From: a virus
Taxonomy: Duplodnaviria; Caudoviricetes
Virus record (IMG/VR): IMGVR_UViG_2061766007_000586
Location: 64,001 to 128,000 of that record
Length of the DNA: 64,000 bases
Reading direction: 5' to 3' (one strand)
Shown here: positions 5,103 through 64,000 of the stretch, one piece after another
Position numbering within the stretch: the stretch's first letter is position 1
Layout: every line of letters begins with the position of its first letter
The notes under the pieces: generated by a model
Databases searched by the model: none
Told to the model about the DNA's origin: nothing
What the model saw: the letters and a program-made list of their open reading frames with translations, nothing else
Made by a program: the position numbers and the translations under genes

Positions 5103-5768
5103 TTAGCCAACGATGTAATCCTGACGGATCGGTTGATTGTCCGTTTTCCGACGAATTGTGTGAACTTCAGACCAGAAGTTTCTTCCAGCTTCAGCACGAA
5201 CAAATTCGACTTTACAATTGTGAAGCTTTTTCACACGTCCACCCGGATAAATCTTGCATGTTTTAACATCACAATTATCCAGAGTAACCGTACCACGAAC
5301 ATGCAGCATCTCAATCACTGCACCGTCCTTGATATATGCTTCACCTGTTTCATCAATGACCGCATTTTTGGTTCTAGATCCAGGACCAAACGTAATGTAA
5401 CCATGGCACATCACGTTTTCAAGTTCTGAATTGTCGCCCACCCATGAGATAGTGTCTTCACGGGTGATGAAATTATTGAGCTTTGTGTTCGTGATAATAC
5501 ATTCATTACGAACTCTGGCCGGAATGTCAAGATCCTTCGGCTCAATATCAAACACATTGAGTTGAGAATCCATGATTTCAACATCAACATGTGACATCAA
5601 CCTTGCAGGTGAAGTACAATTTACAAGTTTGATTTTATTGAACTTTTCAGTCAAATCATAGAACGCTTCATCTGTTTCGATGTGCGTATTATGAATTGTG
5701 ATTTTCAAAGGATTTTTATTCTGATCGTATTCTTCGATCGGATAGTTGTTTTTTTCGTAAAGCGGCAT
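5103..5768 (-). CDS. Hypothetical protein with beta-helix-like repeats
   Basis: 221-aa ORF with AAGGAGA RBS; repeated short beta-strands (IxNTK, LENV, TLDNCDV). Confidence 0.7.
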   Translation of the reverse strand: MPLYEKNNYPIEEYDQNKNPLKITIHNTHIETDEAFYDLTEKFNKIKLVNCTSPARLMSHVDVEIMDSQLNVFDIEPKDLDIPARVRNECIITNTKLNNFITREDTISWVGDNSELENVMCHGYITFGPGSRTKNAVIDETGEAYIKDGAVIEMLHVRGTVTLDNCDVKTCKIYPGGRVKKLHNCKVEFVRAEAGRNFWSEVHTIRRKTDNQPIRQDYIVG

Positions 5769-62820: not shown

Positions 62821-63147
62821 TCAATGCTTAAGATAGGTAATAAATGTAATATAAAGAATGATAAGAAGTCCCCAATGAAGAAGAATATATTTTTTTACTT
62901 TCTCTACATCTAGTCTTCCTTTCGAACAATCCTTCGTCACATTGATTCTTGCGGCTTCCATTTTTTCATCCCACGTTTTGCATTTCTTAACTTTAGCTTT
63001 GAACTCTTCAATTTCCTCTTCGTCTTTATCTTGTTCAGCTCTATTAAAAAGAACAACAGCATACCCGAACAGAGTATACAAAATGAAATCAATCACAATG
63101 CCTCTGATAGTTTTTCCGATTTTCTGTGAAAACGATTTAGTTTCCAT
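62821..63147 (-). CDS. Small early membrane protein with two transmembrane segments
   Basis: 108 aa with AAGGAGA RBS; hydrophobic N- and C-terminal helices around a charged loop. Confidence 0.7.
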   Translation of the reverse strand: METKSFSQKIGKTIRGIVIDFILYTLFGYAVVLFNRAEQDKDEEEIEEFKAKVKKCKTWDEKMEAARINVTKDCSKGRLDVEKVKKYILLHWGLLIILYITFITYLKH

Positions 63148-63183
63148 ATTAATCTCCTTTATTAATTATGGATTATTTATTTA

Positions 63184-63193
63184 GTAATATATA
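63184..63193 (-). promoter_or_regulatory. phiKZ-type early promoter TATATATTAC
   Basis: Exact motif upstream of 63147. Confidence 0.7.
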
Positions 63194-63212
63194 CCTAAAC
63201 AAAGAAAGAAAA

Positions 63213-63293
63213 TGGTGGAGCTAGTGGGGATCGAACCCACGTCTTGCGGCGGCACTTTGGCTTTAACCGCAATCGACACCATGTCATAGCCCC
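63213..63293 (-). ncRNA. Mini-tmRNA: tRNA-like domain only (alanine acceptor), no mRNA-like domain
   Basis: GGGGCTA-TGACATGGTGTCGA-TTGCGG-[17 nt]-CCGCAA-GAC-GTGGG-TTCGATC-CCCAC-TAGCTCC-ACCA; G3-U70 pair, TCGA before helix 2, GAC linker, no anticodon loop. Confidence 0.8.
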
Positions 63294-63304
63294 ATTTGAA
63301 AGAT

Positions 63305-63595
63305 AAACTCCTTTCTCAGGTGGAACACTATCCAGATCTTTGTGTTCCGGGTTAACCCAGTCATTACTGACTGTCTCCTTTTTCACGCCTGTGACCGAAC
63401 AATAGCATCGCTGTCTTCGGTCTACTGCTCATCACAGTATCAGGAGCGAGGGACGTATATCGTGATCAGGGTCTTGTCGCGATCAAGAACCCCACCGGAG
63501 CTACACGTTAATATGCTTGGTAGAAGCACCGTGTCTCTTCCCCTCCACACTGGACCACCTGCTTTTCCATACAGATGGCGGAGATTGGTTAAAGA
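63305..63595 (-). ncRNA. Unidentified highly structured non-coding RNA candidate
   Basis: GC-rich intergenic segment with long-range closing helices (63317-23/63555-61, 63308-11/63580-83) and at least seven nested hairpins. Confidence 0.6.
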
Positions 63596-63619
63596 TTAGA
63601 GTTTATTTTTATCATTATA

Positions 63620-63629
63620 GTCATATATA
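63620..63629 (-). promoter_or_regulatory. Early-type promoter variant TATATATGAC
   Basis: One mismatch to TATATATTAC; lies between a terminator and the structured RNA. Confidence 0.55.
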
Positions 63630-63659
63630 ATCGATAAATTTTGAACAACACTTTTAAAA

Positions 63660-63687
63660 GATCCTGGAGCATTTATGCTCCAGGATC
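63660..63687 (-). terminator. Terminator
   Basis: GATCCTGGAGCAT-tt-ATGCTCCAGGATC. Confidence 0.8.
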
Positions 63688-63694
63688 ATAACTT

Positions 63695-64000
63695 TTATCT
63701 CTTTCTATGTTGAACAGCTTCAGCAGCTTTTTCAGCATATGACATATCAGCAGGCTTCTTAGCATGCTTGTTAAGATATTCACGTGCTTCTTTCTCATCA
63801 ACGATAGCAATACTACCTACTCCGATTTTATCAGTAGAAGGAATTTCTTTTCCTTCATTAAAATCTTTAATGATCTTACTTAAAGGACCTGGTTCTTGAT
63901 AATCAAACTTGTTGATTTCCGTATCCTTCTGTCTATTGACTAAATCATTAATAGGAGTAGTCTTATATGTTTCATGCTCAAGGTTGACAATGTAATGCTT
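63695..64000 (-). CDS. Partial CDS (C-terminal end), hypothetical protein
   Basis: Open frame KHYIVNLEHETYK...AAEAVQHRKR* running off the window edge, followed by a terminator. Confidence 0.65.
   Translation of the reverse strand, partial: KHYIVNLEHETYKTTPINDLVNRQKDTEINKFDYQEPGPLSKIIKDFNEGKEIPSTDKIGVGSIAIVDEKEAREYLNKHAKKPADMSYAEKAAEAVQHRKR

Follow-up and report, generated by a model that had tools for sequence, protein, structure and literature searches.

The locus described here raises the question of what is made from ~310 nt of GC-rich sequence without an ORF, which lies in a large phage genome between an early-type promoter motif and a tRNA-like domain (TLD) of the tmRNA type, and whether this leader belongs functionally to the TLD that follows it. 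The original prediction was a new structured non-coding RNA forming one unit with the TLD. The window, that is, the whole stretch of 64,000 nucleotides that was analysed, corresponds to bases 64001-128000 of an IMG/VR phage record of 318,604 bases, which is judged complete and has a mean GC content of 36.2% and 20 tRNA genes. We propose that the leader is an uncatalogued folded RNA gene of ~310 nt, which would be co-transcribed with the mini-tmRNA, released by RNase P, and act in trans as an exchangeable accessory RNA, and we consider this explanation as a whole to be, on balance, probable.

The locus and its tag-less tmRNA

Read along the minus strand, the locus comprises, in this order, a 456-aa gene, a terminator hairpin, a promoter motif, the leader, the TLD, a U-rich tract, the next promoter motif, and a 108-aa gene, and virion genes including that of a head-tail joining protein are located directly downstream of the RNA unit on the same strand (Table 1). 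The terminator hairpin is present in every relative reaching that point, and each relative has a similar U-rich tract after the final RNA of its unit; transcription would probably terminate at this tract. The motif TATATATKWC has four sites in the window, all of them on the minus strand, and the site ahead of the leader, which had been predicted to be an early-type promoter, has a TATATAT(T/G)(A/T)C counterpart at the equivalent position in all seven relatives that extend that far (L118, L119, L120, L122, L126, L127, and L132). It probably works as a promoter, and its general form resembles TATATTAC, which we take to be the early promoter element of phiKZ-type phages. As had been noted originally, no terminator is predicted on the minus strand from 63620 to 63213, and leader and TLD are probably co-transcribed. 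The GC-rich island was also found as described: 100-nt windows at 63200-63600 have 45-53% GC against 25-38% in the flanks, and the leader has ~50% GC against 36% for the genome.

Table 1 Features of the RNA unit, in the order of transcription (window coordinates)
Feature	Position	Strand	Remarks
Terminator hairpin	63660..63687	-	Ends upstream 456-aa gene; 5' boundary of RNA unit; 12-bp stem, 7 GC pairs
Phage promoter-like motif TATATATGAC	63620..63629	-	Presumed start of RNA unit
Leader RNA (cassette type A)	63294..63610	-	~310 nt, without ORF, compact fold
P0 5' strand (outer helix)	63598..63606	-	Partner 63303-63311; MFE; specific to window genome
P1 5' strand UCUCC	63580..63584	-	Partner GGAGA; consensus fold
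P2 hairpin	63554..63579	-	Conserved loop UAUGGAAAAG; consensus fold, comparison
Pseudoknot strand GUCCAG (J2/3)	63550..63555	-	Partner CUGGAU 63330-63335
P3-P4 arm	63497..63543	-	CUACCAA in apical loop; consensus fold
P5 hairpin	63464..63496	-	11 pairs, paired in all sequences
P6 three-way domain	63384..63457	-	Variable region of type A; consensus fold
P1 3' strand GGAGA	63374..63378	-	Shine-Dalgarno-like; consensus fold
P8 hairpin CAGUCA-GUAA-UGACUG	63358..63373	-	Consensus fold
P9 hairpin	63322..63348	-	Conserved 13-nt loop AAAGAUCUGGAUA; loop bases 63330-63335 in pseudoknot
P0 3' strand GGAGUUUAU	63303..63311	-	MFE
Linker	63294..63302	-	Ends A-U directly before TLD G+1; predicted RNase P site 63294/63293
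TLD-only mini-tmRNA	63213..63293	-	G3:U70, A73, encoded CCA; Rfam tmRNA
U-rich tract	63195..63212	-	Closes RNA unit; read from sequence
Next promoter motif TATATATTAC	63184..63193	-	Ahead of 108-aa gene

The TLD itself is readily classified. The Rfam tmRNA model (RF00023) aligns with it from end to end (45.8 bits, E 6e-17), its 81 nt matching the acceptor, D-analogue, T-arm, and CCA of the model, with 13 nt in place of 308 model positions, and the tmRNA-type arms, the alanine-type G3:U70 and A73, and a helix 2 capped by a short loop are those of a TLD-only mini-tmRNA. The TLDs of the relatives score 39.8-45.7 bits with the same model. ARAGORN does not call the TLD at 63213-63293, and the phage encodes neither a full or other tmRNA nor SmpB. 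A TLD-only (CDS-less) tmRNA of mycobacteriophage DS6A has been reported to inhibit host tmRNA (PMC4131195, PMC11915505). Moreover, a pattern scan of IMG/VR yielded 15 further TLD-only genes of 77-89 nt (L009, L015, L018, L026, L048, L055, L057, L058, L062, L063, L065, L076, L092, L097, and L106), which score 57-78 bits with the Rfam tmRNA model and none of which is reported by ARAGORN. Because TLD-only tmRNAs are thus known from DS6A and from these additional genes, we regard the mini-tmRNA as a known but under-annotated kind and the RNA before it as the finding.

Several side observations were made on mini-tmRNAs. In L015 the mini-tmRNA is placed after a run of tRNA genes, and in L125 it lies inside a tRNA array. 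The helix-2 loop motif of the TLD, GCCAAAGUGC, recurs in mini-tmRNAs of the unrelated metagenome contigs L124 (98-180) and L125 (minus strand, near 1044-1074), one of them in a tRNA array; it resembles what we take to be the AAACCCAAGGUGC stretch of E. coli tmRNA, and this likeness suggests a functional site kept from full tmRNA. A full tmRNA with the tag GENTYAMAA in an uncultured Chitinophaga MAG (L154:4016-4384, minus strand) shares a 31-nt 3' end with the phage TLD, differing at the single free position of the pattern only, and this is the sole such genome among 185,579 species; the match may be a weak clue to the host or origin. In L097, whose TLD (5456-5537, minus strand) is by eye the closest to that of the window, ~1.35 kb downstream of the TLD is without an ORF of at least 80 aa. 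Pistol ribozymes were found 0.3-2.7 kb from mini-tmRNAs in three phage contigs and a HEARO RNA on a fourth, these loci being L026:3130-3201, L055:5916-6012, L062:6292-6379, and L065:794-1003.

Folding, coding capacity, and conservation of the leader

Folded alone, the leader reached a minimum free energy (MFE) of -107.4 kcal/mol against -84.2 +/- 5.6 for shuffled sequences (z -4.18), and 0 of 100 shuffles was as good. A search of 63100-63750 with the covariance models of Rfam 15 at E <= 10, which covered RNase P, SRP, 6S, Y RNA, T-box, group I/II, GOLLD, ROOL, raiA, HEARO, OLE, and small ribozymes, gave no match to the leader, in agreement with the earlier view that it holds no RNase P, SRP, group II domain V, or hammerhead core, and eight relatives spanning five cassette types gave no leader match at E <= 5. 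In the same interval, ARAGORN called nothing tRNA-like within the leader, and the Rfam tRNA model had no match either. Neither copies of the leader nor other cassette types occur elsewhere in the phage genome, in which no antisense target of the leader was found.

The leader does not appear to encode a peptide of any kind. Its three-frame translation contains no tag frame with a resume codon and an Ala-Ala-type tail; all frames of the RNA strand have stops and none ends tag-like, as had been stated for ssrA-like AA-tag ORFs. Short frames differ among the window, L119, L120, and L127, and PHROG and Pfam gave no match to the leader frames. The mini-ORF after the Shine-Dalgarno-like strand has 2, 10, or 26 codons or is missing, depending on the variant, and is therefore not conserved. 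The longest open frame over the leader is on the opposite strand, where L119 and L122 have it broken by 1-nt indels in different ways; the GTG-started ORF of 85 aa that lies antisense to the leader (63342-63599, plus strand) and is frameshifted in both genomes is an artefact of GC-rich structured sequence. A 127-aa "gene" is likewise called across the leader in L120 and L121. Because 1-nt indels fall within the 5' half, the most conserved part of the alignment of the window with L119 and L122, and the frames are broken differently, we conclude that the leader is not coding, and no protein-coding pattern of conservation is seen. The idea that there is no RNA gene here, and that the sequence either encodes a small protein or is a GC-rich spacer that arose by chance, could draw on the 85-aa ORF and on the many other GC-rich windows in the genome, but it is scarcely credible in view of the broken frame, the lack of a family match, the folding energy given above, and the stems rewritten around conserved loops described below.

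The relatives came from metagenome assemblies. A blastn search of phage GenBank with the leader and TLD returned nothing, nor did searches of IMG/VR with the neighbouring proteins or with the exact TLD 3' end and a lineage-specific TLD pattern; the leader motif GGAGACAGTCA..TGACTG had 15 IMG/VR matches, which were rejected as chance ribosome-binding-site or coding sequences. The 612-aa neighbour protein has homologues in metagenome assemblies at 61-99% identity, and the contigs of these homologues together with one metagenome pattern scan supplied nine sequences of the same layout; contigs found through the 108-aa neighbour end before the leader. The nine contigs belong to one clade of ~300-kb phages and carry, in this order, the terminator, TATATAT(T/G)(A/T)C, a leader of 270-450 nt with 38-52% GC, a TLD of ~80 nt, a U-tract, and the next promoter motif.

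The window leader and those of L119 and L122, which we call type A, are 85% identical over 260 nt. In their consensus structure, 97.8% of cells are paired, a value that falls to 35-41% when the partners are slid. Both sides are changed in four pairs, which was equalled by 11 of 500 shuffles, and the compensatory changes are in P6 and the replaced hairpin P6b. The originally predicted hairpins at 63322-48, 63358-73, and 63469-92 and the long stem at 63497-63546 were recovered in both the MFE and the consensus fold, and the predicted pseudoknot GUCCAG/CUGGAU was placed at 63550-55 with 63330-35. Two other predicted helices did not survive the comparison. The long-range pairing CAGGUGG/CCACCUG is confined to the window genome, its 3' partner being missing in L119 and L122, where a local hairpin with CCAUCUG persists. 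In the multiloop closure 63375-79/63442-46, L119 and L122 lack one of the pairs. The purine strand 63374-63378 pairs better with the 5' UCUCC (63580-84) than with 63442-63446, and the UCUCC helix is also found in two other variants. Both strands of the 9-bp P0 lie in insertions, and L119 and L122 have no insertion on either side.

The stronger evidence for a conserved fold comes from leaders that can no longer be aligned. Type B (L120, L121, and L123) and type E (L127) have the architecture of type A, with primary sequence that is otherwise unalignable. Four unrelated P9 stems (GGAACAC, AUGGAAC, UGUGC, and GAGC) surround a 13-14-nt loop AAAGAU..GGAUA, and three unrelated P2 stems of 7-8 bp carry a conserved U-W-U-G-R-W-A loop, those of types B and E being CCAGGUU/AACCUGG and CCAUGAGU/ACUCAUGG. 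P8 in type E is the strand-swapped UGACUG-GUAA-CAGUCG, compared with CAGUCA-GUAA-UGACUG in type A, and the closing helix P1 reads UCUCC/GGAGA in type A, UCUCCUC/GAGGAGA in type B, and CCUCC/GGAGG in type E. The pseudoknot changes from GUCCAG:CUGGAU in type A to GUCCCA:UGGGAU in type B, which amounts to two compensatory pairs, and is not evident in type E. The apical loop of P3-P4 is kept as CUAYCAA in types B and E, and a loop-loop pairing L2:L4 has 7 bp in both of these types (chance ~0.004 each) and 3 bp in the window genome.

A covariance model (R1) that covers the 3' domain and was made from type A only located both type B (33.7 bits, E 8.5e-6) and type E (22.9 bits, E 0.004) at their expected positions, recovering the P9 hairpin in both; the rest of the 292 kb of loci and of the 318-kb genome gave no match. 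With filters at default or off, types B and E were not recovered by a model of the 5' domain (R2), the expected L120 site ranking second with 10.9 bits (E 0.62), and the homology of this domain between types is therefore based on manual comparison. The sample comprises ~10 metagenomic sequences of one phage clade with three independent lineages of the type A/B/E fold, and the covariation statistics are accordingly weak. At the level of sequence comparison, these data nevertheless demonstrate one conserved, folded RNA that is non-coding, and the prediction of a new structured RNA is upheld by its non-coding nature, its compensatory changes, and the absence of an Rfam match: the leader is a real RNA family matching no catalogued one, with unusual cassette behaviour. 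Another ORF-poor region, ~6.3 kb past the window end (L153, G000:C1:133800-135400), has no Rfam match at E <= 0.1 and none to model R1.

Several known identities were tried for the leader and rejected. The body of a standard tmRNA (RF00023) has no match beyond the TLD in the window or the relatives, and local alignment of every leader type with the full tmRNA of L154, as a source of a derived tmRNA body, was no better than that of shuffles. A permuted, two-piece tmRNA (RF04321) was discarded, as the TLD is contiguous and the model reached 18 bits against a cut-off of 47, on and downstream of the 3' part of the TLD. An array of tRNAs or tRNA-like modules was also dismissed, with no cloverleaf or acceptor/T-arm modules found by ARAGORN or Rfam.

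Exchange of leaders within a fixed frame

The backbone around the leader is far more uniform than the leader itself. The upstream gene is 94% (L127), 92.5% (L126), and 90% (L122) identical to that of the window genome, and the downstream DNA of L118 is 97.8% identical, yet the leaders of L127 (type E), L126 (type C), and L118 (type D) have no similarity to the window leader. The TLD has two alleles that do not follow the leader type, since type A occurs with both and the allele of the window genome occurs with types A and C; in the comparison with the window genome, only L126 and L132 have a similar TLD. The near-identical flanks around unrelated leaders and the TLD alleles that do not track the types indicate that the leader is an exchangeable cassette and that its partnership with the TLD is not obligatory. 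Upstream of the 15 other TLD-only genes, sequence free of ORFs is never longer than ~100 nt, except in one case behind a tRNA array, and this, together with the mixing of alleles and types, indicates that the leader is independent of a particular TLD, and the TLD of the leader. The leader slot is evidently a recombination hotspot with at least five leader types, some of which share modules with type A. Thus, the original view of one unit with the TLD can be kept for the common unit from promoter to U-tract but not beyond it, as leaders and TLD alleles were exchanged independently between near-identical backbones, leader-TLD complementarity is not conserved, and a comparable leader is lacking before the other TLD-only genes.

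These data also bear on whether the leader is a cis-acting pro-sequence that controls the folding of the TLD, the timing of RNase P release, or the accessibility or charging of the 3'-CCA, so that both form one device. The leader does stand before the TLD in every relative with a TLD at the locus, with a short linker of 13-28 nt; UGG in conserved loops could pair with the CCA end, and the 3' strand of P2, GGUGG, could pair with CCACC of the TLD 3' end. GGUGG is absent in types B and E, however, so that the GGUGG:CCACC pairing is limited to type A and is not conserved, and the leader types have no common TLD-complementary element. With the allele mixing and the upstream regions of the other TLD-only genes also speaking against it, we judge a cis role to be unlikely, although leader and TLD are strictly adjacent in all relatives, which could yet reflect a functional link.

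Other contents of the slot were observed in passing. The type C leader (L126:7420-7697, minus strand, and L132:748-1016) is a different structured RNA, in which a long-range helix contains two compensatory pairs and the element CCAGCGGAGGAAGCAUUGGC is conserved. In type B, an apparent C-like module stands before an A-like one, the 5' half (L120:4407-4668) resembling type C. In L113 (2498-2893) and L115 (3149-3349), which are relatives at ~65% protein identity, small protein genes of 131 and 66 aa with ribosome-binding sites lie behind the same promoter motif, and the TLD is absent. In L123 (533-642; Rfam tRNA 47.4 bits) and L132 (1107-1219), the TLD is followed by a tRNA-like gene of 110 nt that carries a long insertion inside; it is absent from the window, and at this place L119 and L122 have other non-coding sequence, ~160 and ~90 nt long.

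The modular look of type B and the mini-tmRNAs within the tRNA arrays of L015 and L125 would fit a string of separate small RNAs, in which the 310 nt comprise several independently processed modules, either tRNA look-alikes or small RNAs. We consider such a string quite improbable, because 200-290 nt lie within P0, P1, and the J2/3:L9 pseudoknot, the last two of which covary across types, and the leader contains no tRNA-like element by ARAGORN and Rfam and no internal T-loop or CCA-type ends.

Proposed processing and role, and known systems

In the structure that we propose, the pyrimidine strand and the Shine-Dalgarno-like purine strand would form P1 and close the fold, with P0 as an extra outer helix in the window genome. 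Several hairpin arms would lie inside P1, which would be followed by the GNRA hairpin P8 and then by P9, whose conserved 13-nt loop may form a pseudoknot with the junction that follows P2. Transcription would start from the early-type motif TATATAT(T/G)(A/T)C and read through into the TLD. The most likely next step, we infer, is cleavage of the precursor by host RNase P at U(-1)/G(+1), that is, at 63294/63293. U(-1) precedes G+1 of the TLD in 9 of 9 related sequences, and a conserved U(-1)/G(+1) context with a canonical acceptor stem, as in RNase P precursors, is seen here; leader and TLD are thus predicted to be separated. The cut would give the ~310-nt leader a defined 3' end and free a stand-alone mini-tmRNA, and the freed alanine-accepting TLD would compete for host SmpB and stalled ribosomes.

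If this cut did not occur, the transcript might be a chimera aimed at the ribosome, in which a Shine-Dalgarno-like anchor and a folded body are joined to the TLD as a new kind of pseudo-tmRNA. An AGGAG-type purine strand is indeed found 60-90 nt before the TLD in types A, B, C, and E (in type E as UAAGGAGGUGA), and the TLD bears alanine identity elements. We regard such a chimera as decidedly improbable, as the purine strand is sequestered in P1 or P0, the 5'-extended canonical acceptor stem with its conserved U(-1) is an RNase P substrate, there is no tag frame, and leaders are swapped independently of the TLD.

For the released leader, we suggest the role of a trans-acting RNA of early infection, which would serve as a protein-binding decoy or as a scaffold for host takeover or counter-defence; the TLD would be its constant neighbour and processing handle and not its functional partner. 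The wholesale replacement of leaders in near-isogenic phages and the presence of proteins in the slot are the pattern of accessory early genes and favour a trans-acting decoy or scaffold, which we put forward tentatively as a possible role. The cis role, the ribosome-directed chimera, the small-RNA string, and a ribozyme all rank below it. The last of these, a self-cleaving ribozyme or the relic of an intron- or retroelement-like mobile RNA inserted before the TLD, would account for the complex pseudoknotted fold and the cassette-like replacement between genomes, and Pistol ribozymes are found near mini-tmRNAs in three other phages. Its chances are nonetheless very slim: the ribozyme option contained in the original prediction is not borne out by any ribozyme, group I, or group II match at E <= 10 in the searches that spanned five cassette types, the phage has no reverse transcriptase, no homing endonuclease or transposase gene is nearby, and the cassette begins and ends at the promoter and the TLD. 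A wider reading of the decoy or scaffold role would make the frame from promoter to mini-tmRNA an RNA accessory hotspot, whose unrelated folded "payloads" of at least five types are matured by means of a tRNA-like handle and each capture or neutralise a different host factor; we consider this wider reading rather doubtful.

Large phage RNAs with complex folds are very few to our knowledge, and we know of none described beside a tag-less tmRNA. In one clade of giant phages, elaborate RNA folds are swapped inside a fixed frame from promoter to mini-tmRNA, which in more distant relatives holds protein genes. If the leaders are expressed and stable, accessory functions of early infection may be carried out by exchangeable structured RNAs, and if the payload reading is true, these would be RNA counterparts of the protein cassettes for anti-defence or host takeover and would form a new functional class among phage RNAs. 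Expressed and stable leaders would also make types A to E defined candidates for pull-downs of partners and for structure determination. In phages, the tRNA-like part of tmRNA, which is likely an antagonist of ribosome rescue, may possibly be a processing handle as well.

Among known systems, the TLD-only tmRNA of DS6A has an alanine-identity tRNA-like domain without pseudoknots or a tag frame, as at 63213-63293, and differs in that a structured leader is not mentioned in the two papers on it (PMC4131195, PMC11915505). The two-piece (permuted) tmRNA resembles the present unit in that the precursor of a tmRNA-related gene is cut into two RNAs, as predicted here, and a second structured RNA adjoins the tRNA-like part. 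Here, in contrast, the TLD is complete with both acceptor strands, the leader has neither a tag frame nor a resume-codon context, and no conserved pairing joins the pieces. Stable RNAs released by RNase P at an adjacent tRNA-like structure are known from the species 1 and 2 RNAs of phage T4 (rnaC and rnaD) and from MALAT1-mascRNA in animals, and the processing logic proposed here would be the same, although the leader has no sequence or structural relation to them. GOLLD and ROOL are large complex-folded RNAs of phages and prophages with no assigned function, which are often located beside tRNA genes. The leader shares with them the large complex fold and the phage origin, and it differs from them in having no Rfam match, in being about half their size, in belonging so far to one phage clade, in its position beside a mini-tmRNA, and in its exchange as a cassette.
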